Source of the DNA: Patescibacteria group bacterium
GTDB taxonomy: Bacteria; Patescibacteriota; Minisyncoccia; Phycocordibacterales; UBA2100
Length of the DNA: 63,744 bases
Direction: 5' to 3'
Assembly (NCBI GenBank): GCA_038064535.1
Contig: JBBTSX010000001.1
Span: 1 to 63,744, forward strand
Shown here: positions 5,010 to 46,586 of the stretch, piece by piece
Numbering within the stretch: the stretch's first letter is position 1
Layout of the letters: the number at the start of each line of letters is the position of its first letter
Notes under the pieces: generated by a model
The model's input: the letters and a program-made list of their open reading frames with translations, nothing else
Database searches by the model: none
Told to the model about the DNA's origin: nothing
Translations under genes and position numbers: made by a program

Positions 5010-5105
5010 CCCCGTTAGAGAAAACTGTCACATGCTTCTCACCGACCCGGCGTTCGGTGAGGCTCCTTTTTGAAAACCGCCGTCTAGTATGTTTCTCTAA
5101 CGGGG
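5010..5105. repeat. family A foldback element copy A1 (CCCCGTTAGAGAAA ... TTTCTCTAACGGGG)
   Basis: 14-nt perfect arms at 5010..5023 and 5092..5105; direct repeat GCGTGC at 5005..5010 and 5105..5110; interior carries a terminator. Confidence 0.85.
5038..5071 (+). terminator. intrinsic terminator after CDS 3833..4993
   Basis: CTCACCGA-cccggcgt-TCGGTGAG followed by GCTCCTTTTT. Confidence 0.65.
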
Positions 5106-5620
5106 CGTGCAATAAGCGCGATGAGGATGAAGAGCGCGAACGCCGAGAGCGCCATCCACGGCATGGTGATGTAGCCGAACTCAAAAATACTCCTGACCGC
5201 GCAAGCACCTGTCGCATCACACGGAATGAGTGCGCCGGCGGGTAGCATCTGTAAAAGGTGCTGGTAGAGCGCGACCAGTGCGCCCGGAATAGAGAGCACG
5301 AGCACGTAGTCCGCGATGTCGGAAAATCTGACGTTCTTCAAGAGCGCTACTCCCGAGATAAACGCGATCGGGTACATGAAAATCCTCTGCCACCAGCACA
5401 GGTCGCACGGAGGGAGAAATACGACGTACTGGATGAAGAGTGAACCGACGAGACAGCCGGTTGCAAATACAAACGTGACGAGGAGCGCGTAGCGGCGGAT
5501 GAATGCGAGTGTAGATACCCGCCATGCAGGGCTCAAGAGGCCCGCGAGGACGAGTACGACCGCCGCGTTCATAGCGACCGTGCCGAGACCCATAAGCGTG
5601 ATGAATATGTTGGACTGCAT
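5084..5620 (-). CDS. disulfide bond formation protein, DsbB/BdbC family
   Basis: Membrane protein with CDLCWWQRIFMYP (CxxC-x-QR motif typical of the family); last 8 codons (RPVRETY) are encoded by the arm of repeat A1. Confidence 0.85.
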   Translation of the reverse strand: MQSNIFITLMGLGTVAMNAAVVLVLAGLLSPAWRVSTLAFIRRYALLVTFVFATGCLVGSLFIQYVVFLPPCDLCWWQRIFMYPIAFISGVALLKNVRFSDIADYVLVLSIPGALVALYQHLLQMLPAGALIPCDATGACAVRSIFEFGYITMPWMALSAFALFILIALIARPVRETY

Positions 5621-5629
5621 GAGACGCTG

Positions 5630-6310
5630 TTATTGCTGGCTCGATGAGGCGAGTGCCGCATCAATAACCGCCTTGAATGCCGCCGCACTTTGCGGATTCG
5701 GTATCTGTTTGAGGTCGACGAAGAACGTCGGCGTGTGGTTTACCTTCGCGGCGTTTGCGGTTGCCATGTCCGTCTGGATTTTCTGCTTCACTGTCGGCGA
5801 ATTTATGTCCGTATTGAATTTCGCGACATCAAGCCCGAGCGACTGTGCATACACAGCAAGATATTTCGAGACTATCGTACCTGCGGCGGCATCAGACCAT
5901 TCGGCCTGCTTCGCATAGAGGAGGTCGTGCATTTCCCAGTACTTGCCCTGCAAGCCGGCGGCTTCGGCCGCTTGCGAGGTTATCATCCCGTTTTGGTGTT
6001 GGGGAAGCGGATAATTGCGGAATACAAATTTCACGTCGGACGCATACTCTTCTTCGAGCTGTTGCAAGATGGGCTCATACGCGGCGCACGCCGGACATTG
6101 AAAATCTCCGTATGTTATCACGCTGACTTTGGCATTCTTATTGCCGGTCACCCAATCAGCCGGCGTAATGTCCGCTACGGTCGTCGCCTCGAAGCCTCCC
6201 TGCGGCAAGACGGTGCCGGAAGAAGAAAGCCCCGCAATCACGGCAATGGCCACGATGACGACAAGGAAGCCTCCTGCCATCCACATCTGTATTTTCCGGT
6301 CATTTTCCAT
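5630..6310 (-). CDS. membrane-anchored DsbA-like thiol:disulfide oxidoreductase
   Basis: N-terminal TM anchor, thioredoxin fold with CPAC active site (YGDFQCPACAAYEP); adjacent to the BdbC-like gene. Confidence 0.85.
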   Translation of the reverse strand: MENDRKIQMWMAGGFLVVIVAIAVIAGLSSSGTVLPQGGFEATTVADITPADWVTGNKNAKVSVITYGDFQCPACAAYEPILQQLEEEYASDVKFVFRNYPLPQHQNGMITSQAAEAAGLQGKYWEMHDLLYAKQAEWSDAAAGTIVSKYLAVYAQSLGLDVAKFNTDINSPTVKQKIQTDMATANAAKVNHTPTFFVDLKQIPNPQSAAAFKAVIDAALASSSQQ

Positions 6311-6372
6311 CGCCGTATACTACCGCCGATTATCGCGGAGTGCAAAAGCTTTGCGTCTGCTACAATTCCGCC

Positions 6373-6888
6373 ATGACAAATCCGATATTGGAGGCCGAAA
6401 AAGCCCTGCACATCGAAGATGTGGACCGCGCGTTCCTTCTCAAGGTGGTCCAGCCCTCGTTGGTCGGCCTTATCGACGGCTCCATCTCCACGCTCGCCCC
6501 CCTCTTTGCGGCGGCGTTCGCGAGCCACGACCCGCACATCACGTTCCTCGTCGGCACGGCCGCGGCCATCGGCGCCGCCATCTCGATGGCTTTCGCGGAG
6601 GGACTATCCGACACGGGCGAACACACGGGGCGCGGTCACCCCGCCATTCGCGGCTCCATCGTCGGTGCGGCGACTTTCATCGGCGGTATCTTCCACACGC
6701 TTCCCTTCCTCGTCCCCGATTTGAACACTGCTCTCACGCTCGCGTATATCGTCGTGGCAGTGGAGTTGATTGCCATCAGCTACATTCGATTCCACTACTT
6801 TAAACTCAGTTTTTGGTCGTCTATCGCGCAAGTGCTCTTTGGTGGCGTACTTGTATTTCTCGCCGGTATCCTCATCGGCAGCGCATGA
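6373..6888 (+). CDS. VIT1/CCC1 (DUF125) family membrane protein, putative Fe/Mn transporter
   Basis: LVGLIDGSISTLAPLFAAAF...AFAEGLSD...hydrophobic C-terminal helices; ATG at 6373. Confidence 0.75.
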   Translation: MTNPILEAEKALHIEDVDRAFLLKVVQPSLVGLIDGSISTLAPLFAAAFASHDPHITFLVGTAAAIGAAISMAFAEGLSDTGEHTGRGHPAIRGSIVGAATFIGGIFHTLPFLVPDLNTALTLAYIVVAVELIAISYIRFHYFKLSFWSSIAQVLFGGVLVFLAGILIGSA

Positions 6889-6917
6889 TGCGGCGCCCTC
6901 TTGGCGCCGCTCGTAAA

Positions 6918-7625
6918 CTAATGATGTTTCTTCGCGCCGCACCTGCAACCATGCGGACGAATGAACTCGTCGAAATACTCATCGCCATAGTCGATGGTTA
7001 TCTCCTCTCCCTCCGTAATCTTTTTAATGGCAGAAATGATGATGCGGCCGCCTGCCTGCCGCGCCCCTGTCTGCGTGCTACGCACAGGCAGGCGACCGGC
7101 TTTTATTTCTCGCTTAATCCACTTTCGGCCAAACCCGGTTTTCAACCACTTTTCTCTGGCAACTGCCTCCTCACGACTAGAGTATTCTTCCGAATGAACT
7201 ATGCCGCGTGGTCTGTACTTTGAAGTGTACTCAGCGCCTCTGCCAGTGGTATGCTCGTTCCACCTTTTCAACAAATTTTGGGTTTGGCCGATATACATCG
7301 CTCCATTTTCACATTCGATGACATAAACAAAAAAGGTATTCGGTCGCGGCGCAGGCAGGTCAACGATTTCCGCTTCGGTGTTGGGGTCGCAGGAATGATT
7401 GATGTATCGGGCGACACTGCCACCGTGCTCAGCGTCTATCGTCCATTCATCGTCTATTTCAAACAGGTATTTGCTTTTCATCGCATCTGCCTCTTTAGAG
7501 TCAACTTTTGTACCCGTGTATTCGGCAACGAACGCCCCTTTCTTGATATCGGCATCCGCAAAAAGCCCCTGCCCTTTGCCGGAGCTGGCATCTTTCACTG
7601 TCACAGACGGGGCTGTCGCTTCCAT
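6918..7625 (-). CDS. SET-domain protein with an in-frame GIY-YIG (URI/YhbQ-like) nuclease domain inserted in SET-C
   Basis: SET motifs GKGQGLFA...ARYINHSCDPN and GGRIIISAIKKITEGEEITIDYG...CRCG are split by FFVYVIECENGAMYIGQTQNLLKRWNEHTTGRGAEYTSKYRP...EEAVAREKWLK (GIY-YIG). Confidence 0.8.
   Translation of the reverse strand: MEATAPSVTVKDASSGKGQGLFADADIKKGAFVAEYTGTKVDSKEADAMKSKYLFEIDDEWTIDAEHGGSVARYINHSCDPNTEAEIVDLPAPRPNTFFVYVIECENGAMYIGQTQNLLKRWNEHTTGRGAEYTSKYRPRGIVHSEEYSSREEAVAREKWLKTGFGRKWIKREIKAGRLPVRSTQTGARQAGGRIIISAIKKITEGEEITIDYGDEYFDEFIRPHGCRCGAKKHH
7051..7092. repeat. GC-rich family D hairpin (CCTGCCTG ... CAGGCAGG) inside the SET gene
   Basis: Arms 7051..7058 / 7085..7092 are complementary; encodes the linker RLPVRSTQTGARQAG; a third arm GCAGGCAGG sits at 7351..7359 on the other side of the GIY-YIG module. 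Confidence 0.7.
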
Positions 7626-7648
7626 ACGGCGTGAGTATAATACGGGTA

Positions 7649-8911
7649 ATGACAAAACGGGAGAAGCTCTCTACCGAAAGCTACAAAGGGGTCCGGGATT
7701 TTTACCCCGAAGACCAATTCCTCCAGCGCTACCTTTTCGAGCACATGGAACGCGTCTGCGAGCTGTTCGGCTACGAAGAGTACAGCGCGAGCATCCTTGA
7801 GCACTCCGAGCTCTACCGGAGCAAGACTTCGGAAGAAATCGTAAACGAGCAGACGTACACCTTTACCGACCGCGGGAATCGCGAGGTGACGCTCCGTCCC
7901 GAGATGACGCCGACACTCGCGCGCATGATTGCCGCGCGCTCGCGCGACATTCCCCTCCCTGCGCGCTGGTACACTATCGCCAATGTCTTCCGCTACGAGC
8001 GCCCGCAGCGCGGCCGTCTGCGCGAGCACTGGCAGCTCAACGCCGACCTCGTCGGCGCCGAAGGCGTGGAAGCTGATGCGGAGATAATCGCGGTCGCGCA
8101 CGGCGTGATGCGAAGCCTCGGTGCTGAAGAGCGTGATTTCGAGATACGTGTTTCCGACCGCCGCATTCTCGACTCTATCTATCAATCCGTCGGCATCGCC
8201 AAGGAATATGCCGCCGACATTACGCGCCTCCTCGACCGTCGCGCGAAAGTGGACGACTTCGAGAAGCGCCTCACCGATATGATCGCTCACGAAGAAAAAG
8301 CCGTGAAGCTCATCGAAGAATTGGAACGCGTGACATCGAGCGCCTATCTCGAAGAGCTGCGCATCACTCTCGAGCGCATGGGCGTCCACAACATGATAGT
8401 GGACACGTCCATCACGCGCGGGTTTGACTACTACACGGGCATGATATTCGAGGTGTACGACACTCACGAAGACAATCGCCGCTCGCTCTTCGGCGGCGGT
8501 CGCTATGACAACCTGCTCGGTATGTTCGGCGGCGAAAGCATTCCCGCCGTCGGCTTCGGCATGGGCGACGTGACCGCGCGGGACTTCCTCGAGGCTCACA
8601 ACCTCCTTCCCGAGTACGCACCGGCGACCGAGCTCATGCTCTGCGTCGTTGACAAAGAATCGAGCGCTCACGCCATCCAGCTCGCGCAGGCACTCCGGCG
8701 CGAAGATGTCACCGTCGCTATCAATTTCTCAGGCAAACGCATCGGCGACCAAATCCGTCAGGCCGACAAAATGAAAGTACCGTTCGTTATCGCCATCGGT
8801 GAAAAAGAGCGTGTTGAGGGCCGCTATGCTATCAAAAATCTCGCAACCGGCGCCGAAATGACGCTTCCGGCGGACCGCATCGCGGAACACCTTTTTAGCA
8901 GTCTCGGGTGA
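7649..8911 (+). CDS. hisS: histidine--tRNA ligase
   Basis: YKGVRDFYPED, FRYERPQRGRLREHWQ, GGGRYDNL motifs; TATAAT (7636..7641)-N7-ATG 7649 supports the start. Confidence 0.92.
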   Translation: MTKREKLSTESYKGVRDFYPEDQFLQRYLFEHMERVCELFGYEEYSASILEHSELYRSKTSEEIVNEQTYTFTDRGNREVTLRPEMTPTLARMIAARSRDIPLPARWYTIANVFRYERPQRGRLREHWQLNADLVGAEGVEADAEIIAVAHGVMRSLGAEERDFEIRVSDRRILDSIYQSVGIAKEYAADITRLLDRRAKVDDFEKRLTDMIAHEEKAVKLIEELERVTSSAYLEELRITLERMGVHNMIVDTSITRGFDYYTGMIFEVYDTHEDNRRSLFGGGRYDNLLGMFGGESIPAVGFGMGDVTARDFLEAHNLLPEYAPATELMLCVVDKESSAHAIQLAQALRREDVTVAINFSGKRIGDQIRQADKMKVPFVIAIGEKERVEGRYAIKNLATGAEMTLPADRIAEHLFSSLG

Positions 8912-9004
8912 GTGTCGTAAGCGTTGTACACGTTGTAAACGTTCAAATCGCCGATATTTTCCCTTGCATAAAACGAATAGAACGTCTATAACGACTTGAA
9001 CGTC

Positions 9005-9580
9005 ATGCGCATTGTTACTTTTGATATTGAAACGGCCAATTGGATGAACGAGACCGGTTCCTCCGACCCCGCGGCGCTCACCATCGCACTCGTGTGTGCG
9101 CACGATTCGGAGACCGGCGAATACACGAGTTATCTGGAAAACGAACTCCACAAATTTTGGCCGATACTCGAGCGCACCGATGTGCTTGTAGGTTACAACT
9201 CCGAGCATTTTGATATCCCCCTTTTGAATAAATACTACCCAGGCGACCTCACGCGCATCAAAAGCCTCGACATCATGAAAGAGGTGTACGAGACACTCGG
9301 CCGGCGGCTCAAGCTCGACACCATCGCGGAGGCGACGCTCGGGGTCAACAAAAGCGCGAGCGGTGCGCAGTCGCTCCAATGGTGGCGCGCGGGAGAGGTG
9401 GAGAAGGTGCGCGAGTACTGTCTCAAGGATGTGGAGATAACAAAAGGTATTTGCGACTACGCACTTGAGCATGGACTCTTAAAATATAAAGAGCTCGGCA
9501 AAACACGCGAAATAAAGCTCGACACATCAAAATGGCTCGCCCCGACCGGCGGCGCAATGACGTTTTCTCTCGGTTTCTAA
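9005..9580 (+). CDS. RNase H-like DEDD 3'-5' exonuclease
   Basis: MRIVTFDIETANW (ExoI) and VGYNSEHFDIPLL (ExoII) motifs; possible promoter TTGCAT(8964)-N17-TATAAC(8987). Confidence 0.7.
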   Translation: MRIVTFDIETANWMNETGSSDPAALTIALVCAHDSETGEYTSYLENELHKFWPILERTDVLVGYNSEHFDIPLLNKYYPGDLTRIKSLDIMKEVYETLGRRLKLDTIAEATLGVNKSASGAQSLQWWRAGEVEKVREYCLKDVEITKGICDYALEHGLLKYKELGKTREIKLDTSKWLAPTGGAMTFSLGF

Positions 9581-9611
9581 AAAAAGTCGGGCATGATAAA
9601 GTGTCCACGAA

Positions 9612-9684
9612 GCTTGGGTAGCTCAGTTGGTAGAGCATTCCCCTGAAGAGGGAAGGGTCGCCGGTTCGATCCCGGCCCCAAGCA
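9612..9684 (+). tRNA. tRNA-Phe (GAA)
   Basis: Acceptor GCTTGGG/CCCAAGC, D-arm TAGCTCAGTTGGTAGAGCA, anticodon loop CTGAAGA, T-arm GGTTCGATCC; CCA not encoded. Confidence 0.9.
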
Positions 9685-9698
9685 CAAAAGTTTCTTAG

Positions 9699-9992
9699 CT
9701 ACTGCGACGGCATGAACTTCTCGGTGAACTGTTGCCACGCCTTTTGCATATCCGAGAACTGCGCCGAAGCTTGCGCACCGGTACCTTGCATCTGTTTTAC
9801 TGTGTTAAACATCTGGTCCACGACAGGGGCAAGATACTGCATGTAGAACCATATCGGAGCGAGCAGTAGAGCGCCGTATACCATGAAGCTCACAAGCCGG
9901 CTCCAGAACGCCGAGCGCCGCATCTTGTGAAGCAACTTATTGTTCTCGAGCGAAAGACGGTACGTCTCGCGCAGCAAGTCGTCGGATTCCAT
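9699..9992 (-). CDS. hypothetical small membrane protein
   Basis: 97 aa, one strongly hydrophobic helix (LVSFMVYGALLLAPIWFYM); the start codon directly abuts repeat A2. Confidence 0.6.
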   Translation of the reverse strand: MESDDLLRETYRLSLENNKLLHKMRRSAFWSRLVSFMVYGALLLAPIWFYMQYLAPVVDQMFNTVKQMQGTGAQASAQFSDMQKAWQQFTEKFMPSQ

Positions 9993-10109
9993 CCCGTTAG
10001 AAGCAGGACGCGGACAGATGCTCCGCGCATGCTCGGTTAGTTTCTCCTAATGTCGACCATTCTGTACTGTGCATATGTTTTGTATTGTGCGTCCGCGGCT
10101 TCTAACGGG
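9993..10109. repeat. family A foldback element copy A2
   Basis: CCCGTTAGAAGC (9993..) / GCTTCTAACGGG (..10109); flanked by direct repeat GGATTCCAT at 9984..9992 and 10108..10116. Confidence 0.85.
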
Positions 10110-10118
10110 ATTCCATAC

Positions 10119-10379
10119 TCACATTGTATCAGTCTTCCTTGTACGAATGATGCGCCACTGTTGGTACGCGAGGATGACCCACGCAAGAAGAAGCGAAGCG
10201 GCGGAAATGCCGGAGACAATGAGCCCGAGAGTCAGGTAACTTACCATGAACGTGGCGACGCACGCGCATGTAAGTAAGGACGAGGAGAGGGCCGGCTTGT
10301 CCTTACTGAAAATCGACGGCACCAGCGCGGCGACAGCCGCCCACTGGGCTACGCTGATAGCGATGTCCTGCCACTGCAT
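10119..10379 (-). CDS. hypothetical 3-TM small membrane protein
   Basis: ATG at 10379 (MQWQDIAISVAQW...); the longer tracked start at 10409 would overlap tRNA-Arg. Confidence 0.5.
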   Translation of the reverse strand: MQWQDIAISVAQWAAVAALVPSIFSKDKPALSSSLLTCACVATFMVSYLTLGLIVSGISAASLLLAWVILAYQQWRIIRTRKTDTM

Positions 10380-10397
10380 GCGTGAAGTATACCTTAG

Positions 10398-10469
10398 TGC
10401 CCCCGCCAAGAGTCGAACTTGGATTCTCGCGTTAGGAGTGCGAAGTTCTATCCATTGAACTACGGGAGC
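10398..10469 (-). tRNA. tRNA-Arg (CCU)
   Basis: Reverse complement folds as GCTCCCG...anticodon loop CTCCTAA...T-arm CCAAGTTCGACTCTTGG...CGGGGGC-A; one mismatch in the anticodon stem. Confidence 0.85.
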
Positions 10470-10595
10470 TAGTGAGGAACAAAGTCAGAATATCTTATAT
10501 TCGGACTTTTTCCGAGCGACGCTCACGAAAGCCTTGCTTACGGGAGCGGTGCACGCAATGTAGCATGCACCGCTCTCTTTCAAAAAGACGCCAGG

Positions 10596-10835
10596 TTAGA
10601 CAGCCAGGAGTTCTCGCAATTTCTCTTCATCAAAGCCCACGACGAGCTGGTCGCCTACCGTGATGACGGGCACTCCCATCTGTCCGCTCTTCTCTATCAT
10701 CTCCTTTCTCTTCTCGAGGTCAGAGCCTACGTTGTAGTCGGAAAACTTCACGCCGTTTGCGGTGAAGAAATCCTTTGCCGCATGACAGAAGTGGCAGGTC
10801 GGAGTCGAATAAATGGTTACGCTTGGTGTAGCCAT
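10596..10835 (-). CDS. glutaredoxin-like protein (NrdH/YruB-like)
   Basis: 79 aa, TCHFCHAAKDFF CxxC motif, GVPVITVGDQLVVGFD. Confidence 0.85.
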   Translation of the reverse strand: MATPSVTIYSTPTCHFCHAAKDFFTANGVKFSDYNVGSDLEKRKEMIEKSGQMGVPVITVGDQLVVGFDEEKLRELLAV

Positions 10836-10885
10836 ACTAGATAGGTATTAGTTGCTAGTTAATAGTTTGTAGTTAACGGAGTATA

Positions 10886-11473
10886 TCATGCGGACTTTTG
10901 TCGCGCCTCTTTCAGCGCTATTGTCCACCAGAGAAGCTGGTCGATAAGCCCTGTCGCACGTTCCGTGTAGGGCGCGAATATCTCGGCATCCGGGGTTCCT
11001 TTCCCCGCGGCAACAATCACATCATAGGGCATGTGTATCGCGTTCCTGATAGGCGCAAGCTGGAGTTCGACGGCCACCCCGCGGAGCTGCTCCACCGAAC
11101 GGGCACCCATCGCCGAGCCGTAACTGATGAATCCGATGGCCTTTTTGTTCCACTCCGGATAGACGTAATCAAATGCATTCTTGAGAACGGCCGGATAGCC
11201 GTGATTGTACTCAGGCGCTATGACGATGAATCCGTCAGCTTCTTTAACCTTGTTGCGCCAGCGCTCAACAGCCTCATGCTTGTACTCCTCCTGTTTATAG
11301 CCCGGCGAGACCGGCTCGTCGAAAAAAGGCATTTGGTAATCACGCAGGTCAAGAAGCTCGGCGCTCACGTCATTGCGCTTCTGCAGCTCGCCGAGAATCC
11401 AGTTCCCCGGCTTCTCGCTGAAACGACCTTGTCGTGTGGAGCCTAGTATCACTTTTATGTTTAGTTTTTCCAT
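10886..11473 (-). CDS. NAD(P)H-dependent FMN reductase family protein
   Basis: KVILGSTRQGRFSEKP...APEYNHGYPAVLKNAFDY typical of the FMN_red family. Confidence 0.85.
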   Translation of the reverse strand: MEKLNIKVILGSTRQGRFSEKPGNWILGELQKRNDVSAELLDLRDYQMPFFDEPVSPGYKQEEYKHEAVERWRNKVKEADGFIVIAPEYNHGYPAVLKNAFDYVYPEWNKKAIGFISYGSAMGARSVEQLRGVAVELQLAPIRNAIHMPYDVIVAAGKGTPDAEIFAPYTERATGLIDQLLWWTIALKEARQKSA

Positions 11474-11542
11474 ATAGTTTGTCCGAATATTCTTATCGTT
11501 CTGATAATTAGTAATGAGTTAAGGAGGTTCAGTATATTCCAT

Positions 11543-11561
11543 CACTTTACTTTGTAAAGTG
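11543..11561. promoter_or_regulatory. candidate HxlR operator palindrome CACTTTAC-TTT-GTAAAGTG
   Basis: Perfect 8-bp inverted repeat in the divergent FMN-reductase / HxlR intergenic region. Confidence 0.45.
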
Positions 11562-11585
11562 GATAACTCGTGCTACTGTTGTGTA

Positions 11586-11912
11586 ATGTTGCGGACACAG
11601 AAACAGCGCGACGAGCTCTGTAGCTCGTGCCCAGTCGCAAAGGTGGCCGATATCATCGGCGACCCGTGTTCCCTATTGCTCTTGCGCGACCTCATGGACA
11701 GTCCGCGCCGTTTCGGCAATCTCGACGAATCCCTCGGCATGAGCACGCGTACGCTCACCAAAACGCTCCGCCGGCTTACGAAGCTCGGTTTTGTGGAGCG
11801 CAAAGTATATAAACGCCTCCCGCCGCGCGTCGAATACCGCCTCACCGCCAAAGGCCGCGCCCTCAAAGGCGTCCTCGGTGAGATGCGCGCGTACGGAAAG
11901 AAGTATCTCTAA
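11586..11912 (+). CDS. HxlR-family winged-helix transcriptional regulator
   Basis: CPVAKVADIIGDPCSLLLLRDL...RFGNL...LPPRVEYRLTAKGRAL; divergent from a flavin reductase as is typical. Confidence 0.85.
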   Translation: MLRTQKQRDELCSSCPVAKVADIIGDPCSLLLLRDLMDSPRRFGNLDESLGMSTRTLTKTLRRLTKLGFVERKVYKRLPPRVEYRLTAKGRALKGVLGEMRAYGKKYL

Positions 11913-11990
11913 CCAGCACAAGATACTCAAAATTGAACTGATTGCATCGCCGACGATTTCGAGTTCTTTGCCAGCGAATCAAAGACGAAA

Positions 11991-12644: not shown

Positions 12645-12664
12645 AAAATGATTTTATTCATAAC

Positions 12665-12738
12665 TGGTGCGGGCGGCGGGAATCGAACCCGCATCTAATG
12701 CTTGGGAAGCATTCATTCTACCACTGAACTACGCCCGC
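12665..12738 (-). tRNA. tRNA-Gly (CCC), CCA encoded
   Basis: Reverse complement GCGGGCG TAGTTCAGTGGTAGAAT...anticodon loop TTCCCAA...GGGTTCGATTCCCGC CGCCCGC ACCA. Confidence 0.92.
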
Positions 12739-12860
12739 CTTCGCTAAAGCTTCGGCGGGCAAGCCCGCTGCTTCGCGCAATAAGTGAACTTTTTGCGTCT
12801 TCACTCGGACGAAGTGTGAGCAAGCTCCCGCTTCGCTCCTCGCTAGACGCAATAAATGTA

Positions 12861-36848: not shown

Positions 36849-39800
36849 TCACCGCCGTATCCATATGCCTCGAAGTCTGGCCAAGCCCGCCTCGAGCTTT
36901 GGGCTGCTGCGCAACCTTTCCATTGCAACGTTCTCAATATACGCTCGACCAACCCATCCCCTAGTAGGGTCATTGAGCGCCTCATTGATACCGGTCTGAA
37001 CTTGATTGCGGGCGGTATTGATGCGTGCTATCGAAGTGTTGACTTGGTCAATCGAACTCTGAATTTTATCGGCGAGTTTCTTGTCGCCCGCATCCAATGC
37101 CGCCTGTTTCGCTTCTTGAAGCACAGGTCTTGAATCTTTCAGCGATTCCAGCACATCGTTCCCTGCGCTCTTAAAACTGCTGAGGGTTGAGTCTGGATTC
37201 TTCAGAACTTTCTCCAGTTGGTCGGTGTTGTCTCTCACGTCTTGAAGTGCCGCGTGAGCATTGCCGACGGCCTCTTGTTTTTTTGCTTCCGTTACTTCAG
37301 GTCGGGGCTGAGGAAGCGGGATTGCCTCTCCCTCCCCGATTGCGGTTGCGGCGGTAGTTTCTTTTGCCGGTGCGCTATCGGCGGCAACCTGCGACGACGC
37401 GCCTTCACCGGCAGTTTCACTGGCAAACGACCGCGCCGCTTGATCGTTGGCGACATTTTCTGTGATTTGCTTGTCTGACAAGAGCAGGTCTTTCGGCTCA
37501 AACTGATTCAGATACGAGAGGTCCGCCACAGACAAATCCGGCTCTTTGGCTTCCGGCGCTTCTACATTCGCTACTTCATCGCCGAATGTGCGGGCGGCCT
37601 GATCATTTACAATATCTGTAGCCACTTGTTCATGCGACACGAGAAGGTCTTTTGGTGCCGCATCGTCGAGATATGCAAGATTCTTATCCGGAATTATTGT
37701 CTCCGTCGGAATCGCAGGATTCAGAGAATCGGGCGGAGCCTGATTGTAGGCTCCTACAGCGAGGTCCTGCGGAGAAGTCGCCTCTTTTACCTGCGCCTCA
37801 ATATCTTTGCCGCTTTCTGCGGTGAAGATTTTCGGATCCCATAGCGGCACCGGAATGCGTTCTTCTATTGGAATTACTTTTTCCGTTTCTTTTTCCGGTG
37901 CAAAAGTAGACGCGGCCTGTTCAATCGGGTTGCCGTTGCCGTCTATATCCTGCGGGCGCGGCGTCGGTAGCGGCACTTCCGGAGCCGACGGCGTTATGAG
38001 CGCCGCGTCTCTCCCCGTGCCGCCCAACTCCTTTTCGAGCCCGCCGGACGCGACGTAGTTATTGCTTCCGCTCCTCGTGTAATCCGTGACCGGAACATTT
38101 TCTACCGTCCTATCACCCACCTGCACGTTCACCTTGTCACCGATTTTGAGACCCTGCGGATTGTCGCGCGGCACAGCGATGCCCTGCATGTCTCCGGCAA
38201 GCGGAGTGCCTCCCGCCGCGGAGCTCCTGCTGTCTGCTCCGCACACACCTCCCCCTCCTTGGCAGCCGAGTGCGACCAGCTTCTGCCCGCCGGAATCATA
38301 CGGATTACCTCTGTTTTCTTCGATGGAATTCCACGGTTTGGCGTCTGGATTCGCGAGGCGTTCGAGCGGCGGCTGTTGTGCGGCTTCTTGCACGGATGCG
38401 GCTGTCGGCGCACCTTCCGGTCGTGCGGGCGGGAGCGGAACTGTTTCTTGAATGGGTTGCAAGCGATTGTCCGAACCGGCATTGGCGGCAATGATGTCCG
38501 CTGTCTTGCCCCCGCCGGATTCCGCCGCCGGAATACTCAACGGTCGTTCCGGTGGAAGCCGCACATCAGTTACGGTTATCTCCGGCCGCGGCGGAGGGAG
38601 CCGCACCTCATCAACGGGTGTATCTGTACCCGATGGCGGCACGTCACTGATTTTCGTTTCTCCGGGTATTGATACCGTCGGTGCAGGTGCCACATCGGTC
38701 CGAAGCGCATCGTTGGACGGGTATTCAAGTGCAAGATTGCCGACAATATTCGGCTCGGGCCAGTCTTTGGAGTCAATGGTATTGAATGCCTGTTGAGCAG
38801 CAATACTGGCATTTTCCTGTGCGCTCATCGCCGTGTTTCCTTCCCAACCGTTTGCGAAAGCGTTGAACGCCGCATTGTCGGTCATAATCTGGTTTTGCCC
38901 AGAAGATACGGCGGCACCACCCTCCCACCCTCCGGCAAATGAGTTGACAGCCGCGTTCTCGGCAAGCGTTTGATTTTGTCCCGTGGACAACGCGGCACCG
39001 TTTTCCCAACCGCCGCCAAATGCGTTGATTGCCTGATTCTGGAAGCCCTGTTCCGCAACTGCAAGATTCCCACTACTTTCACCGTACATATCGTACGGGC
39101 TGTTGGTGCCGGTCCACCCGCCGTTCATCTTCGTACTGGTGTCGACCACATCGCCGCCGTAATAACTCGCATTTTGGAGCGGCTGCTGGTCGATGTACGA
39201 TCCCGCTGGTCGCGCCGAATAGGGCAAATCATTACTGCCCCCGACATTGTCGACCGGTCTCGTCTGTGTAATCTCCGCATTTCCCGAATCCGGCAAACCG
39301 GAGTATTGCGTATACGTCTGATAACGCTCATTCAGGAACGGCTGGTTGCTCGCAAGTCTCATCGCTTCGGCGTCGGAGTTCGCGAAGCCGGTTGCAATGT
39401 CAAGCTTGTCAGGTCTTCCGACGAAATCACTCCCGGTGTCATGGATGTAGACCGGAACGTTCTCGAGCGTGTACTGTTTGCCATCAATTGCACTCCTGTA
39501 CGTGATACTAGGAATTTCGTATGTTTGGCCCATTCGTTTGGTAAGGTCGGACGCACCGGTCACATATTCTGATTCCCCGCGCCTATAATTATCGAGTGTC
39601 CGAACGAGCCTTTCGCCATCGAGCCCGGGTCGCGCGCTTTCACGACCGCCCTGCATCGGACACGCGCTTGCGCTCGGACACGGCAGATAGGCAGTCACAT
39701 CAAATTTCGTCTCCCCTATTGCCTTTACCGATATGACTCCTTCCCGCTCTTTTGAAGCATCCGGCTTCATCTCTCCTTGAATATCTCTCGGGGGTTCTTT

Positions 39801-41492
39801 CGACAATGTCTCCTCAGGTCCTTTAGGTAATTCCTTGGTCGATATCTTGCTCCAATCAATCTCCGTCGAAGCGTCTGATTTATTCGGATTATCCAATGCC
39901 GCGTTTTCCGCAAAACCGGTGGCGGGCCGGGCCGGCAGTGAACCGGGGCTGACCGACTCTGCAATGAGCGGCGGCGTAGCCGTTATGGCGTTGCCGTTTG
40001 CGTCGACTGGTGGCGCGGATGCATCTTCTGCCAGTCGCTCCGGCGTCGGCCCGAATGCAACATAGGGAGACTCCGCGTCGATGTTCACCGCGCATGCAAT
40101 GTTTGTGCACGCGGATGATCCGTTTACCCACCAGTCATTTGCCCCACTTACGACGGTACCGAAGTTTGATTGCCCCTCCCCCTTGCTCACCCAATCGCCG
40201 GAAAGATCAGCCGCAATCGGGATTACACTCTTGACGGTCGCACCTGTCTCGAACACAACCGGTTGTCCCGTCGCGTTCACGATATCTTGCGCCGTGATGC
40301 TGTTTGGATTCTCGGGAGCAGTCTGCAACGAGGCGGGCTCCTGACCCACCTGCCCGGGAGCAAAGTTCGCGGCTATTTGATTCGCCGCGTTGTACGGATA
40401 CAGAAGCGGAGTGTTTGCAAGCGACCCGTTCGCCGGAGCCGTCCAGCTGGTGGATATGGGTGGGGTGAATACGCCAGCGTTTGCTATTTCGTTGCCCAGC
40501 AGTGGGGCCAGAGCGGTCGGTATTGTAGGGCTAGTGGGCATCTGAATCGCCCATGGGTCTGAAGCGCTCGGTGCAAACGGAATGGGGGCTACTGTGTTGC
40601 CGGCGGTTGGAAACGGTGTGACGGGGCCGGAAGACGGATTAAGTGCCAGACCTTGTGTGGAGAGCGGATTAAACCCGGTCGTCGGGGCAACCGATGGTGA
40701 ATATGGCGTACCGGGATAATACCCATTGCCGGCATTGAGTGACTCGAGTCCCTGCGGAGCACCGCTCGACTGCGGGAACATTGACGAAGTATTACTCATG
40801 CCGAGATAATCAGAATTGAATGACGACACTGGGTTCAGTGTCTGTTCCAAAATGGACTGCCCCGGTTGGAATCCGGAATACCCATACCCTCCGAGTGAGT
40901 TTTCCGGGGTAATTCCGTACTGCTGGCTGAGCATATTATTAATATCCCCACCAGATGTATCCGGCGCATTTGCTGTGCCGGGAATGGTCTGAAATTCTTC
41001 GGTGCCGTTCTTAAACGCATTATCTATCTGCTCGGGCGTCTTCTGCTCCACGGGTTTCCACGGTGCATTCTCGCCCGTTTGATTGGGAGTACCTCCCGCA
41101 CCTGTCGTATCACCGGCCGGTATTTCCGGCTTTTTGACGTCTCCCGCATATTTACAATCATCTTGCGCGTGGCACTTGCCCGGCACCGTGCCCGACACGT
41201 CCGGTACAGTGGTCGGACATGACTTCCCGTATAGGTTGGTGATTGTCCTGAACGTCTTGAGCGTATTGTCCCATTCCTGCCATTGCTTCCCTTTCGTCGC
41301 GTCGTACTTATTGTTCCTGTCCGGAGCGGGACAGTCTTTATTAGCATTATTGACCGATGGTCCCGATGAAAACCCGGAACCACTGGACCCTCCCGGCATT
41401 GATAAAACCGTCTGCGCATGCGTCAGTGAAACAAATGCGAGACTCAAAAAGGCCGATAGGACAAAAGTAGTCGCTATGCGACTCCGGTACAT
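36849..41492 (-). CDS. giant secreted protein 2 (1547 aa) with 3D-like and DPBB-like putative peptidoglycan-lytic domains
   Basis: Signal peptide MYRSRIATTFVLSAFLSLAFVSLTHAQ; N-domain homologous to giant 1; 3D-like region (39378..39701: TAYLPCPSASACP...VPVYIHDTGSDFVGRPDKLDIAT); DPBB-like region (38013..38270); internal tandem repeats. Confidence 0.85.
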   Translation of the reverse strand: MYRSRIATTFVLSAFLSLAFVSLTHAQTVLSMPGGSSGSGFSSGPSVNNANKDCPAPDRNNKYDATKGKQWQEWDNTLKTFRTITNLYGKSCPTTVPDVSGTVPGKCHAQDDCKYAGDVKKPEIPAGDTTGAGGTPNQTGENAPWKPVEQKTPEQIDNAFKNGTEEFQTIPGTANAPDTSGGDINNMLSQQYGITPENSLGGYGYSGFQPGQSILEQTLNPVSSFNSDYLGMSNTSSMFPQSSGAPQGLESLNAGNGYYPGTPYSPSVAPTTGFNPLSTQGLALNPSSGPVTPFPTAGNTVAPIPFAPSASDPWAIQMPTSPTIPTALAPLLGNEIANAGVFTPPISTSWTAPANGSLANTPLLYPYNAANQIAANFAPGQVGQEPASLQTAPENPNSITAQDIVNATGQPVVFETGATVKSVIPIAADLSGDWVSKGEGQSNFGTVVSGANDWWVNGSSACTNIACAVNIDAESPYVAFGPTPERLAEDASAPPVDANGNAITATPPLIAESVSPGSLPARPATGFAENAALDNPNKSDASTEIDWSKISTKELPKGPEETLSKEPPRDIQGEMKPDASKEREGVISVKAIGETKFDVTAYLPCPSASACPMQGGRESARPGLDGERLVRTLDNYRRGESEYVTGASDLTKRMGQTYEIPSITYRSAIDGKQYTLENVPVYIHDTGSDFVGRPDKLDIATGFANSDAEAMRLASNQPFLNERYQTYTQYSGLPDSGNAEITQTRPVDNVGGSNDLPYSARPAGSYIDQQPLQNASYYGGDVVDTSTKMNGGWTGTNSPYDMYGESSGNLAVAEQGFQNQAINAFGGGWENGAALSTGQNQTLAENAAVNSFAGGWEGGAAVSSGQNQIMTDNAAFNAFANGWEGNTAMSAQENASIAAQQAFNTIDSKDWPEPNIVGNLALEYPSNDALRTDVAPAPTVSIPGETKISDVPPSGTDTPVDEVRLPPPRPEITVTDVRLPPERPLSIPAAESGGGKTADIIAANAGSDNRLQPIQETVPLPPARPEGAPTAASVQEAAQQPPLERLANPDAKPWNSIEENRGNPYDSGGQKLVALGCQGGGGVCGADSRSSAAGGTPLAGDMQGIAVPRDNPQGLKIGDKVNVQVGDRTVENVPVTDYTRSGSNNYVASGGLEKELGGTGRDAALITPSAPEVPLPTPRPQDIDGNGNPIEQAASTFAPEKETEKVIPIEERIPVPLWDPKIFTAESGKDIEAQVKEATSPQDLAVGAYNQAPPDSLNPAIPTETIIPDKNLAYLDDAAPKDLLVSHEQVATDIVNDQAARTFGDEVANVEAPEAKEPDLSVADLSYLNQFEPKDLLLSDKQITENVANDQAARSFASETAGEGASSQVAADSAPAKETTAATAIGEGEAIPLPQPRPEVTEAKKQEAVGNAHAALQDVRDNTDQLEKVLKNPDSTLSSFKSAGNDVLESLKDSRPVLQEAKQAALDAGDKKLADKIQSSIDQVNTSIARINTARNQVQTGINEALNDPTRGWVGRAYIENVAMERLRSSPKLEAGLARLRGIWIRR

Positions 41493-41498
41493 TGTCCC

Positions 41499-41504
41499 AT
41501 TGTA
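41499..41504 (-). promoter_or_regulatory. -10 box TACAAT, 6 nt upstream of the giant-2 ATG (leaderless geometry)
   Basis: Mirrors 35506..35511. Confidence 0.55.
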
Positions 41505-41558
41505 GCAGTACGGCGGCCGTGTAGTGCAAATTGCGGCCCATTTAGTGTATATAACTGG

Positions 41559-41602
41559 GATATCCCCACGGGCTTGCTTTTCCGACAGTTATGTGTTAGT
41601 AT
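41559..41602 (+). promoter_or_regulatory. conserved promoter module 3: box GATATCCCCACGGGC, -35 TTGCTT, 17 nt, -10 TAGTAT
   Basis: Third copy of the module. Confidence 0.65.
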
Positions 41603-41645
41603 TAAACGAGTGACCCTGGGCCATTTCGGCCTCAAGGAGGGAGTC

Positions 41646-41924
41646 ATGAAAAAGACCGTTCTTGCAGTCGTGCTCGCTGTATTGGCGCTGGGGTTTACCG
41701 TCCCGGCAAATGCTCAGTCGGCTCAGGAGCTGACGGCGTTCCAACACATTCGCTCGCTCGATGTGCAAACGTTCGTAGCGCGTCAGGCGCAGGCCGAAGC
41801 GTGCACATGGACCCCGACGCAGGCGAAATACTTCGAGTGCCTGCAGTCGTACAACCGCAGCATCGCGCAGTTGCAGCAAGAAGCTGCAATCGCAATCGCC
41901 AAGGACATCGCCGGCAAGAAGTAG
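41646..41924 (+). CDS. small secreted protein 3 (92 aa)
   Basis: AAGGAGGG-N5-ATG; signal peptide MKKTVLAVVLAVLALGFTVPANA; 2 Cys; helical mature part. Confidence 0.6.
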   Translation: MKKTVLAVVLAVLALGFTVPANAQSAQELTAFQHIRSLDVQTFVARQAQAEACTWTPTQAKYFECLQSYNRSIAQLQQEAAIAIAKDIAGKK

Positions 41925-41935
41925 TCGGAGCATCA

Positions 41936-41975
41936 CTGGTCACTCGCACCTCGCGGGTGACCAGCTCTCTTTTTT
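41936..41975 (+). terminator. intrinsic terminator
   Basis: CTGGTCAC-tcgcacctcgcgg-GTGACCAG followed by CTCTCTTTTTT. Confidence 0.7.
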
Positions 41976-42036
41976 GAATTATGCCTTGGCCCGTTTTCCC
42001 GACTCAAGCGAATGCGGCGATGGCGTCAGGAACATC

Positions 42037-42163
42037 GCGCAGATTTCGCACCAAAAGCGAGTGCGGATATTACTTTTACCGTCTTCGTAGGCCCGACGGG
42101 GCCGAGATTGAGCGCTGGCGCAGTAGCGCCAGATAGCGACGGCAAAAGTAATGCCCGCCGAGC
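42037..42163. repeat. family B structured ~125-nt element, copy 2
   Basis: Homologous to 12861..12990; outer stem 42068..42082 / 42138..42152; inner hairpins GGCCC-gacg-GGGCC and CTGGCGC-agta-GCGCCAG; ends 2 nt from the groEL stop. Confidence 0.85.
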
Positions 42164-44505: not shown

Positions 44506-44536
44506 AATATTTCATTCACGGGACCGATATATCGGA

Positions 44537-44647
44537 CCCCGTTAGAAATCGAGGGCACACGTTCAATTGCCCACCTCTCCAAGACAGATATGGAAGACAA
44601 CTCTCCCAATGATGACAGTGCTCGCGTATCGTTTATTTCTAACGGGG
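44537..44647. repeat. family A foldback element copy A8
   Basis: CCCCGTTAGAAAT (44537..44549) / ATTTCTAACGGGG (44635..44647); contains the only in-frame ATG (44590) of the downstream gene. Confidence 0.85.
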
Positions 44648-46440
44648 CGGAGCTAAAAACTAAATTAACGACCGAGCGCCGCCTCTCTTGGTTGCGTCGC
44701 GTCGAAGAACTCCTGAAAACCTTCTCACCCGCGGAGCGCCTCGCTCTGTATGTGTTCTCCATCCTGCTTGGTCTGTCCACGCTCGCGCTTCTTGCGGCCG
44801 CCAACAAGGCCGTCTCTGTCGTCATTCCCGCGCAAGGCGGTTCGCTCACCGAAGGCGAAGTGGGGCCCGTGCGTTTTATCAATCCGGTTCTGACGCTTAG
44901 CCGGGCCGACGAGGACCTCACCGCGCTCATCTATTCCGGTCTCACGCGCACACTTCCCGACGGCACCGTCATCCCCGACCTTGCTTCAGACTATGAAGTA
45001 TCGACCGACGGTACGACCTACACATTTCACCTGCGACGCGACGCTGTCTTCCACGACAATACGCCCGCGACTTCCGCCGACGTTCTCTTCACCGTACAGC
45101 TTGCTCAAAACCCCGAAATCAAGAGTCCGCATCGCGCGGATTGGGAGGGTGTCGCCGCCTCTGCTCCCGACAAATACACAGTGATTTTCAAATTGCCGCG
45201 CGCCTACGCTCCCTTTATTCAGAACACGACCATGGGCGTTCTTCCTCAACACCTCTGGAAGAATGTGTCGGCCGATGAATTCCCGTTTAGCCTGCTCAAT
45301 ACGCATCCAGTGGGCACCGGTCCGTACCAAGTGAGCGACGAAAGCATAGACGCGACCGGTAGCGCGACGCGCTACGAATTGTCATCGTTTGCAAAATTTA
45401 CGCTCGGCGCGCCGTACCTCAAGCGCATCACCTTCCTGTTCTACCAGAACGACGCGGCGATGATTCAGGCGCTGAACGCGCGTGAAATCGATGCTATAGC
45501 CGGCGTCTCACCGGAGACGCTCGACGAAATCCGCCGCCCGGACCTCACGACAATGACCGCACTCTTGCCGCGGGTCTTCGGTGTCTTTTTCAATCAGGGA
45601 CACTCCGTCGTGCTCGCCGACAGCTCTGTGCGATTTGCGCTCGACACCGCGATCGAAAAAAGTCGCCTCGTCGACCTTGTCCTCAAGGGCTATGGCGCCG
45701 GACTCGACTCCCCCATTCCGCCCGGACTCATGGGAGACGCGTCGCGGGGCGTCAATGCATCGAGCACGCTCGTGCAGAGCGCGTTCACCGACGAGACGAT
45801 TGGGGGCGCGCACGCGATTCTCGCAAAAGGCGGCTGGACGTATGATGCCGAGTCGAATACATGGAGTAAGAAATCCGCCAAAGGCGGATCCGCCTCCGGC
45901 GGAAAGCAGACACTCGGGTTTACACTTTCGACCGCCGACTCCCCACAGCTCGTCGCAACGGCGAACGCCGTCGCGGACGCGTGGAAAAAACTCGGCGTGG
46001 ATGTAAAAGTGCAGGTGTATTCCCTTTCCGACCTCAACACGACCGTCTTGCGCCCGCGACAATACGACGCACTGCTCTTCGGCGAAGTCGTTGGACGCGA
46101 AGTCGACCTGTTTGCGTTCTGGCATTCGTCACAGCGCAACGACCCGGGACTAAACCTCTCGCTGTACACCAACAGCAAGGCGGACTCCCTGCTTTCGCAG
46201 GCCCGGGCTACGACCAACGCGGCGGATCGCGACAAACTCTACGCGCAGTTCGCGTCGCTCGTGAAGAAAGACGACCCTGCCGTATTCCTTTACGCTCCGG
46301 AATTCGTCTATGTCGTCCCGAAAGACATCGAGGGCATTGAGCTGGGCGCGCTCACGACACCGGCTGAACGCTTCCTCAATGTGTACCGGTGGTACACCGA
46401 TACACAGCACGTCTGGAGCTTCTTTACTTCTAACAACTAA
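44590..46440 (+). CDS. ABC transporter substrate-binding protein, family 5 (peptide/nickel type), N-terminally anchored
   Basis: TM anchor LALYVFSILLGLSTLALL then SBP_bac_5-like core (FHLRRDAVFHDNTPATSADVLFT...GTGPYQV); start uncertain because ATG 44590 lies inside repeat A8. Confidence 0.8.
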   Translation: MEDNSPNDDSARVSFISNGAELKTKLTTERRLSWLRRVEELLKTFSPAERLALYVFSILLGLSTLALLAAANKAVSVVIPAQGGSLTEGEVGPVRFINPVLTLSRADEDLTALIYSGLTRTLPDGTVIPDLASDYEVSTDGTTYTFHLRRDAVFHDNTPATSADVLFTVQLAQNPEIKSPHRADWEGVAASAPDKYTVIFKLPRAYAPFIQNTTMGVLPQHLWKNVSADEFPFSLLNTHPVGTGPYQVSDESIDATGSATRYELSSFAKFTLGAPYLKRITFLFYQNDAAMIQALNAREIDAIAGVSPETLDEIRRPDLTTMTALLPRVFGVFFNQGHSVVLADSSVRFALDTAIEKSRLVDLVLKGYGAGLDSPIPPGLMGDASRGVNASSTLVQSAFTDETIGGAHAILAKGGWTYDAESNTWSKKSAKGGSASGGKQTLGFTLSTADSPQLVATANAVADAWKKLGVDVKVQVYSLSDLNTTVLRPRQYDALLFGEVVGREVDLFAFWHSSQRNDPGLNLSLYTNSKADSLLSQARATTNAADRDKLYAQFASLVKKDDPAVFLYAPEFVYVVPKDIEGIELGALTTPAERFLNVYRWYTDTQHVWSFFTSNN

Positions 46441-46470
46441 TTACTATTCACTACTAACTATTTTATGGAA

Positions 46471-46586
46471 CCCCGTTAGAAATTACGGACTGTAAAACAA
46501 ACGGGGTAACTTATCAAAAACAAAATTTATGAACCAATCAAACAACAGGCATTCAGTTTCGGGGCACCGCCCTATTTCTAACGGGG
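46471..46586. repeat. family A foldback element copy A9
   Basis: CCCCGTTAGAAAT (46471..46483) / ATTTCTAACGGGG (46574..46586); direct repeat TGGAA at 46466..46470 and 46587..46591; a degenerate extra arm CACCCCGTGAGAGAAAT follows. Confidence 0.85.

Follow-up and report, generated by a model that had tools for sequence, protein, structure and literature searches.

Family A: an apparently undescribed, unusually wide-ranging family of MITE/REPIN-like foldback repeats from a Candidatus Kaiserbacteria contig

[quoted passage not shown] Family A is read through in frame into host genes as are the Rickettsia elements, and meets the generic description of a MITE: terminal inverted repeats, small size, multiple copies, and no coding capacity. 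It differs from bacterial MITEs in that a search of the window, of 4 Mb of loci fetched from other genomes (designated by L-numbers such as L286 and L325), of plasmids, and of viral contigs turned up no parent insertion sequence (IS) whose ends match; in an orientation that is tied to an asymmetric flank; and in its extreme forms of 29-32 nt. One census of bacterial MITEs reports that 97.4% of clusters are restricted to a single genus (bioRxiv 10.1101/2024.01.18.576219), and against that figure the cross-phylum range of family A is unusual.

Repetitive extragenic palindromes (REPs), the doublets called REPINs, and REP-associated tyrosine transposases (RAYTs) offer a second comparison. Shared with family A are G+C-rich gene-end palindromes, doublets folding as one ~100-nt hairpin with no gene inside, a conserved tetranucleotide beside the stem, and a presumed mobilisation in trans that depends on single-strand structure. 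By definition, a REP palindrome carries GTAG (or CGTC) at one of its ends (PMC3733652); family A lacks GTAG/CGTC, carries instead a T-N-A-A tetranucleotide (the tag) as a direct repeat on both sides, and has arms that are not themselves palindromes. The oriented insertion of IS200/IS605 elements 3′ of a specific tetra- or pentanucleotide is also matched by family A, in which 52 of 54 flanks are same-stranded within their subfamily. IS200/IS605 elements and their palindrome-associated derivatives depend on DNA hairpins, and target specificity could be element-encoded; their ends are two distinct subterminal hairpins without terminal inverted repeats, and the right-end cleavage site is usually unlike the target. 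Finally, IS1380/piggyBac elements have 5′-CC(C)...GG(G)-3′ ends, 4-5-bp repeats at A+T-rich T..A targets, and precise-looking empty sites, and family A is similar in its CC ends, its 4-5-nt flank repeats, and its empty sites.

The window comes from a lineage of Candidatus Kaiserbacteria, a member of the candidate phyla radiation (CPR), in Hainich groundwater. Its genes are bacterial (LepA, MurJ, DsbB, RNase J, GroEL, HisRS), the nearest genome is the Candidatus Kaiserbacteria metagenome-assembled genome (MAG) MFLL01000025.1 (LepA 92% and HisRS 97% identical in amino acid sequence), and proteins identical to those of the window are found on contigs from Hainich groundwater well H41. The locus of the closest relative, L286 (about 82-90% nucleotide identity; HisRS 97% identical in amino acid sequence), is collinear with window positions 9-17648 at 76-95% identity. 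In CP066682.1, a complete Kaiserbacteria chromosome, the 21 kb covered contain no family A copy.

When up to one mismatch is allowed, the arm sequence CCCCGTTAGAA matches 16 sites in the window; 0.84 would be expected, and none of 100 shuffles reached 16. The last two arms, 15639-15649 and 15658-15668, were recovered at two mismatches. All 18 half-sites are paired and none is solitary, and the nine inverted pairs are those that an earlier note on this DNA had picked out from the sequence:

5010-5105: long copy, 96 nt, arm variant CCCCGTTAGAG; flank CGTG at 5006-5009 and 5106-5109; in the 3′ end of a dsbB-like gene.
9992-10110: long copy, 119 nt with T...A ends; flank TTCCA at 9987-9991 and 10111-10115.
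13661-13690, minus strand: minimal hairpin, 13-bp stem, GAA loop on the minus strand; without flank repeat.
13775-13803: minimal hairpin, perfect 13-bp stem; flank CGAG; between two diverged copies of the lepA 3′ end (last ~22 codons).
15620-15650, minus strand: minimal hairpin, variant arms CCCCGTTGGAA; lepA leader.
15658-15689, minus strand: minimal hairpin, arm variant ...AGAG; lepA leader; G-U pair on the minus strand.
36735-36833, plus strand: long copy, 99 nt, subfamily A1, two internal hairpins; flank TAAA; left arm supplies the stop of open reading frame (ORF) 36255-36743.
44537-44647, plus strand: long copy, 111 nt; flank CGGA; an SBP_bac_5 gene (the SBP gene) has its start codon (44590) and its first ~15 codons in the cargo.
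46471-46586, plus strand: long copy, 116 nt; flank TGGAA; between the SBP gene and RNase J.

A terminal stem of ~13 bp is predicted by folding in every copy (z = -3.0 to -7.8). Four copies are, as had been described, minimal hairpins with 3-nt loops, each 29-32 nt long, and the loop is GAA/TTC in three of the four; the five long copies have 74-97 nt between their arms. The sole arm mismatch of hairpin 13661 is a G-U pair on the lepA (minus) strand. The second copy, given before as 9993-10109, is better bounded as 9992-10110, with T...A ends like those of its subfamily. The flank repeats first listed had to be revised to CGTG (5010), TTCCA or ATTCCAT (9993), CGAG (13775), TAAA (36735), and TGGAA (46471); CGGA at 44537 had been missed, and the three minimal hairpins other than 13775 have no repeat. 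The tags of this GC-rich window are CGTG, TTCCA, CGAG, TAAA, CGGA, and TGGAA.

Comparison with relatives shows that family A is mobile. L286 has no family A arm, even at two mismatches, over the whole stretch collinear with window 9-17648, and so lacks all six window copies that fall there. The L286 sequence at 5010 is ...TTTGCGGG/CAATGAG, against ...TTTGCGTG[96 nt]CGTGCAATAAG in the window; at 9993 it is ...GTGTTCCATGCTC, against ...GGATTCCA[TCCC...GGGA]TTCCATAC; and the empty sites carry a single copy of the flank tetranucleotide. The comparison of filled with empty sites that the earlier note had proposed yields clean empty sites at 5010 and 9993, which indicate that arm, cargo, and arm were inserted as whole units. 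More distant relatives keep RNaseJ-SBP-SecG-GroES-GroEL synteny, and in them neither the 44537 nor the 46471 junction has a half-site: L207-L214 have none in the intergenic regions syntenic with copy 44537, and the relatives' intergenic region at the 46471 site is 12-80 nt long and without the copy. No insertion polymorphism was found among near-identical contigs of the Hainich well H41 population, all of which carry the same insertions. Static hairpins kept at the orthologous site, which the earlier note would have taken as refuting its reading, were seen for the lepA leader pair 15620-15689; the long copies 5010 and 9993 are absent from L286. The earlier description of a MITE/REP-like mobile palindrome family holds for mobility, lack of coding, and insertion as whole units, but the flanks may be a recognised tag, and the minimal hairpins are mostly free of repeats.

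The possibility that the cargo is native DNA that became bracketed by arms was suggested by an arm pair around a tRNA gene and by the SBP cargo, which is like the N-termini of relatives; as a general rule it is ruled out by the empty sites. The tRNA case is at L053 5057-5166 (a Bdellovibrionales MAG), where family A arms surround a complete tRNA-Ala(CGC) gene with mismatched flanks (ttta/cgag).

A comparison of 316 arms shows more than 97% conservation at each of positions 1-10, (C/T)CCCGTTAGA, with A (85%) or G at position 11 and an end to conservation past position 12; unit lengths range from 26 to 130 nt. The cargo, taken in the earlier note to be mutually unrelated, is so within the window but not outside it, where about one third of long copies belong to subfamilies with conserved interiors. 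Of the window copies, i) copy 36735-36833 belongs to subfamily A1, with members in CPR and Desulfobacterota MAGs and two internal hairpins, the second of which shows compensatory changes in 5 of 8 pairs, with 92.5% of cells pairing and a covariation matched by 0 of 500 shuffles, and longer A1 variants have an additional nested minimal hairpin at one end; ii) copy 9993 shares subterminal motifs with a 112-120-nt CPR subfamily (AGGACGCGGAC...GTCCGCG) in other Kaiserbacteria; and iii) copy 5010 shares subterminal motifs with a 79-96-nt subfamily of other Kaiserbacteria, its motif TAGTATG being found also in L135 and L148. Orthologous old copies retain 13/13 arms, or arms that co-vary, and the cargo is mostly unalignable by eye.

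The direct repeats are nonrandom. In 122 long copies from other genomes the left flank has T at -4 in 110 and A at -1 in 112, and the right flank has T at +1 in 104 and A at +4 in 104; the two 4-nt flanks are identical in 77 of 122 copies, an enrichment over the 13.4 (maximum 23) obtained with partners shuffled, and no longer repeat occurs in this set. Repeat length, thought ambiguous because the arms end in CCCC/GGGG, is fixed by these counts at 4 nt, and the ambiguity came from arm bases that were counted in. A larger non-redundant set gives identical 4-nt flanks in 103 of 158 long copies (65%), usually T-N-N-A, and in 5 of 30 minimal hairpins.

The orientation of a copy goes with the strand of its flank. 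Once copies are oriented by their interiors, flank strand type is uniform within each of five BLAST-defined subfamilies (e.g. TAAA, never TTTA; 52 of 54 flanks). L093 is the one exception in A1, whose other copies all carry flanks of the T.AA type, left and right, in a single orientation; members of the CPR 117-nt subfamily show TTCA, TTTA, or CTCA when AGGACGCGGAC is at the left, and TGAA when reversed. Flanks are near-uniform per subfamily, TAAA in Desulfobacterota subfamilies and TTCA/TGAA in the CPR subfamily, and in the canonical orientation a G stands before the left tag with no mirror C beyond the right tag. Only in 3 of 24 cases does the left TAA/TGA end an ORF of at least 60 codons, so that selection for stop codons fails to explain the coupling. 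A symmetric DDE transpososome acting on identical ends is expected to insert in either orientation; oriented insertion beside a specific tetranucleotide is the outcome of single-strand transposition of the IS200/IS605 type or of conservative site-specific recombination. The coupling suggests that the flanks may represent a tag that is recognised, and not a symmetric duplication of the target site, and together with the covariation of the internal hairpin it favours a strand-specific, structure-dependent mechanism.

Family A also spans phyla. The exact pair CCCCGTTAGAA-N70-100-TTCTAACGGGG occurs in at least 120 stretches of a species-representative genome collection, against ~1 expected by chance, and these place family A arms in about ten phyla, at locus GC contents of 34-61%. 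All the listed matches are MAGs, and their taxonomy, taken from MAG record titles, includes many Patescibacteria classes, Desulfobacterota, Planctomycetota, Omnitrophota, Nitrospirota, Elusimicrobia, Cloacimonadota, Edwardsbacteria, Stahlbacteria, Bdellovibrionales, and single Clostridia and Gammaproteobacteria bins. A pattern scan of IMG/VR viral contigs found no family A arms, and BLAST found no plasmid match. The earlier note had not recognised the consensus, and neither did we find it described: Rfam has no family for the repeats (on the window and 8 loci it returned tRNAs only), and no relevant description of the arm consensus appeared among the full-text literature matches listed or in the literature on CPR MITEs. 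We conclude that family A is apparently an undescribed, unusually wide-ranging MITE/REPIN-like family.

How might such a family move? The reading we prefer, with a probability of about 0.5, is that family A is a non-autonomous mobile foldback, MITE/REPIN-like, which inserts in trans beside a 4-nt tag by a strand-specific process that depends on hairpins. The unit consists of two mutually pairing arms of 10-11 conserved bases, (C/T)CCCGTTAGA(A/G), around 3 nt or ~40-110 nt of subfamily-specific or unique sequence, with no gene; whole units are inserted, by a separate enzyme that would act in trans; insertion takes place beside a 4-nt tag, canonically (R)G-T[A/G/C]AA, or C-G-N-G in this GC-rich host; after insertion the tag stands on both sides, with orientation to the asymmetric tag fixed and internal hairpins kept by compensatory change. 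The mechanism would work like the ‘peel and paste’ of IS200/IS605 or REPIN-RAYT on single-stranded DNA, the right-hand tag travelling with the element and the left-hand tag being the target. Once inserted, copies can supply genes with stop codons (the arms hold TAG/TAA), with start codons, and with short peptides at the N-terminus, and some, such as the lepA leader hairpins, have turned into conserved host elements. The minimal hairpins are probably collapsed or co-opted derivatives rather than the transposing unit.

Several observations weigh against this reading. Perfect terminal inverted repeats with identical 4-nt flanks are the textbook signature of DDE elements, and family A differs from IS200/IS605 elements in that its perfect inverted-repeat ends pair together and the same tag stands on both sides. 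Filled and empty sites do not separate a recognised tag from a duplication. Repeats of 5 nt occur in two cases, both window copies (46471 and 9993), and the non-identical flanks of about one third of long copies, often TTYA...TRAA, fit neither a tag nor a duplication model. The coupling itself was measured in five BLAST-defined subfamilies and two by eye, most of them outside the window lineage. Lastly, no transposase, integrase, recombinase, or Y1/HUH protein was found in the window by Pfam searches of ~60 ORFs and NCBIfam searches of 10 of them, as the earlier note had said of transposases, and in the 4 Mb of loci, arm pairs 0.16-4 kb apart, whether or not their flanks match, enclose no plausible enzyme, only neighbouring small copies or host genes.

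The wider search for a mobilising enzyme ended no differently. An inverted arm pair in L007 that might have been an autonomous element flanks an Ig-like surface protein, not a transposase, and clustering of ORFs in 120 loci gave no recurrent transposase-like family. A RAYT or IS200-type enzyme, which the earlier note had put forward, was not found flanked by family A arms in the window or the loci: the IS608 TnpA and E. coli RAYT probes gave no relevant tblastn match to an IS200-like ORF in the loci; the sole RAYT match (L016, a pseudogene) is flanked by its own GTAG REPs, GTAGGGTGGGC...GCCCACC; and no Y1 transposase, TnpB, or omega-RNA-like Rfam match was obtained (Rfam on the window and 8 loci, tblastn with these probes on the loci). 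The window does encode nuclease-like proteins, namely a YhbQ-type GIY-YIG domain, a T5orf172/HNH-repeat protein, and an RNase_H_2/PolB-exo-like protein; the GIY-YIG domain has no homologue beside family A arms, and the 419-aa ORF 56764-58023 matches no family or PDB entry. The GIY-YIG domain is itself a 309-nt in-frame insertion (7054-7362, minus strand) in a SET-domain gene, absent from L286 and bounded by G+C-rich inverted repeats (GCCTGCCGCGCC...GGCGCAGGCAGG), and its CCTGCCTGCG/CGCAGGCAGG motif recurs as inverted repeats in the RNase J N-terminal region (46738-46846).

The chief alternative is a classical MITE, in which family A would have arisen from a DDE insertion sequence by internal deletion and would move in double-stranded form, its flanks of 4 nt (at times 5 nt) being true duplications at T-N-N-A / Y-N-N-R. 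We hold this possible, though less probable than the reading above. The perfect terminal inverted repeats over 10-11 bp, the identical 4-nt flanks of 65% of long copies, the one tetranucleotide copy at clean empty sites, and the same ends on subfamilies with unrelated interiors, as in plant MITE superfamilies, are all what it predicts. The best-fitting partner would be of the IS1380/piggyBac kind, with 5′-CC ends and 4-5-bp duplications; a piggyBac end (CCCTAGAAAG) and an ISEcp1 end (CCTAGATTC) also have TAGA after the C run. The piggyBac target TTAA, however, is palindromic and never occurs as a family A flank (0 of 77), and neither the coupling of orientation to an asymmetric flank strand in every subfamily examined, nor the near-uniform flanks of each subfamily, nor an interior hairpin kept by covariation is accounted for. 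No IS1380-like ORF was matched by tblastn in 2.8 Mb of loci (a weak test, with an ISEcp1 probe), and no long element with family A ends was found in 4 Mb of loci, in plasmids, or in viral contigs. Strand-specific, hairpin-dependent insertion would thus fit better than symmetric DDE cut-and-paste with true duplication.

Host structural elements spread by recombination (terminators, mRNA stabilisers, leader or attenuator stems, protein-binding palindromes) would explain the position at gene ends, the arms of orthologous copies kept or co-varying as cargo decays, the conservation of the lepA leader in L325 and also, though the hairpins are others, in L181 and L328, the GAA/GCGAAGC loops of three of the four minimal hairpins, the arm mismatches that are G-U on the transcribed strand in two hairpins, and the different terminator-like hairpin at the 13661 site in L121. 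Such an origin nevertheless seems improbable to us for the family, since it covers the co-option of some copies after insertion: whole cargo-bearing units are absent from the closest relative, filled sites have flank repeats, coding ends are interrupted in dsbB and lepA, and identical arms of 10-11 bases in about ten phyla exclude vertical descent or convergence on a mere stem. Nor are these ordinary intrinsic terminators, as a T-run follows the terminal stem in only 1 of 9 window copies (13774-13804, plus strand). It is highly improbable that the repeats serve a conservative site-specific recombinase as its sites, in the manner of integron attC or of Xer/dif modules, and that the cargo represents tiny cassettes. 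The arms do contain GTTAGAA / TTCTAAC, reminiscent of attC core sites (GTTRRRY / RYYYAAC), and oriented insertion with a short common ‘core’ on both sides is expected of site-specific integration; but the order GTTAGAA...TTCTAAC on both strands is the reverse of attC (RYYYAAC...GTTRRRY), the spacer of minimal hairpins is 3 nt and not 6-8, the window has no integrase or recombinase gene, and the 40-110-nt cargo is non-coding, with copies dispersed rather than arrayed. We give next to no credence to DNA uptake signals of naturally competent CPR, arranged as inverted pairs after genes like the DNA uptake sequences (DUS) of Neisseria, to which there is a weak resemblance (GCCGTCTGAA against CCCGTTAGAA): the density of about one half-site per 3.5 kb of window and the pairs at gene ends would suit them, but all 18 half-sites are paired, with none solitary or singly within genes, the same sequence occurs in about ten phyla, and the units were inserted with flank repeats.

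If the preferred strand-specific reading is extended, family A might, tentatively, be a new class of hairpin-guided element, single-strand or strand-specific in some other way, that specifies its own tag, is moved by a small nuclease, has crossed about ten phyla in anoxic groundwater and sediment communities that include genome-reduced CPR, and has repeatedly been co-opted as portable gene ends (a start with a leader peptide, stops, leader hairpins such as those of the lepA uORF). We regard this larger claim as possible but less likely than not.

The copies do sit at gene boundaries and contribute start and stop codons, as the earlier note had noticed. The arms hold TAG and TAA, each in a single frame. 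An arm of copy 5010 supplies the stop (5084-5086) of the dsbB-like gene, whose C-terminus has changed from RKQDS-stop to RPVRETY-stop; the cargo of this copy also holds a terminator-like hairpin and T-run at 5037-5062. The stop of ORF 36255-36743 lies in an arm of copy 36735, and copy 9992-10110 lies directly upstream of the abutting start codon of ORF 9699-9992 (minus strand). Within copy 44537-44647 the SBP gene starts in the cargo, at 44590, and its frame continues across the right arm as ISNG, and the cargo of copy 46471 starts a small ORF that also continues through the right arm. In a T...A-ended CPR subfamily, insertion at A/TGAA restores an ATG from the terminal A and the TG of the tag.

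The lepA gene has hairpins at both ends. The first 13 lepA codons occur twice (z = 11.5), on either side of the leader pair 15620-15689, in copies which differ mainly by synonymous changes, including CGC/AGG and AGC/TCC:

15694-15733, minus strand: the upstream one of these 13-codon copies, at which an upstream ORF (uORF) begins; the true lepA start is at 15603.

The 41-codon uORF passes both leader hairpins and stops just ahead of the true lepA start. L325, a distant relative, has the same architecture, both hairpins, and a very similar uORF peptide, with its hairpin at 15380 nearly identical to 15658-15689, which argues that the pair is old and conserved and not a recent insertion; L181 and L328 have a doubled lepA start with another hairpin, and L286 has neither leader hairpin. 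The peptide (its 13 repeated codons read MxxNIRNFSIIAH) and layout of the uORF are conserved in four Kaiserbacteria-like genomes: window 15564-15733 (minus strand), L325 15280-15460, L181 2915-3070, and L328 15080-15250; L286 lacks them. The uORF is possibly a translational leader for EF4. Comparable duplications of gene starts around copies occur in L054 (Buchananbacteria) and L061 (Nitrospirae), and at L061 6500-7110 tandem ~200-nt duplications each contain a hairpin and a gene 5′ end.

At the other end of the gene, hairpin 13775-13803 separates the functional last 22 lepA codons from a second copy (window 13691-13885, minus strand). This displaced copy is 90% identical to the relative's true 3′ end, and the functional copy differs from it at nearly every synonymous site; L121 reads ...GATGCTCG/CGCGCGG... 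uninterrupted at the 13775 site, and at the 13661 site L121 and L286 have a different, terminator-like hairpin. Replacement of lepA by a cassette conflicts with the identity profile, and repeats of the diversity-generating retroelement type were rejected since the differences between lepA copies are not adenine-specific. A 34-codon ORF with its ATG at 13810-13808, 2 nt past the lepA stop, runs through hairpin 13775-13803 into the displaced copy.

Other foldbacks share the neighbourhood. A sister family, whose arm type also occurs in L306 tandem arrays and in L325, contributes a tenth foldback to the window:

46597-46690, plus strand: sister-family foldback CCCCGTGAGAG...CTCTCACGGGG, 94 nt; contains the RNase J start codon (46645).

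RNase J reads through its right arm as LSHG. Head-to-tail units with one common tag are found in L115, L048, and L306; at L306 9590-9930 and L115 6124-6231 such arrays of family A or sister-family units have a single tag (TATA, TGAA) between units. A second foldback family, with arms of 21-35 nt and loops of 54-62 nt, is represented at 12886-12983 and 42063-42158 and perhaps at 3849-3972 and 49904-50019; the 12886 foldback is kept at the orthologous L286 site and is an 85% cross-match to the 42063 copy. In L286 (19075-19165) lepA contains, in frame, an inserted palindrome of ~78 nt from a different family (GTATCAAG...CTTGATAC), which the window lacks and whose motif also fills an intergenic region in L209. 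Perfect palindromes of the CCCAATATAGCGATA/TATCGCTATATTGGG type at 28309-28338 and 28736-28761 stand around a 133-aa helix-turn-helix ORF (Trp_repressor/HTH_23), adjoined by a T5orf172/MUG113 and HNH-repeat (homing-endonuclease-like) gene (27367-28089 region) and a tRNA-Ser. Near-identical intergenic palindromes of 38-40 nt (GTACATTTTAACAAGCCG/CGGCTTGTTAAAATGTAC) at 49572-49609 and 54163-54202 resemble operator sites of one regulator. Copy 36735 lies within a ~10.8-kb stretch (31378-42160) with two giant ORFs of 1373 and 1547 aa, in which only an OmpA domain was recognised; the stretch is absent from the relatives' syntenic loci, where GroEL joins the LemA gene region directly.

Family A elements give rise to spurious extensions at N- and C-termini and leave gene ends split or duplicated; they need masking or modelling when genes are called in MAGs. 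The orientation-coupled tag and the conserved hairpins make the mechanism of transposition a testable question, and the arm-tag-arm junctions and arm-flanked genes are a precise bait for the enzyme. Mobile DNA is commonly considered scarce in CPR genomes, yet the window has six copies over the ~17.6 kb comparable with L286, a relative of about 82-90% identity, which has none. One family with identical ends across CPR and distant phyla points to a route of DNA exchange among members of the subsurface community.

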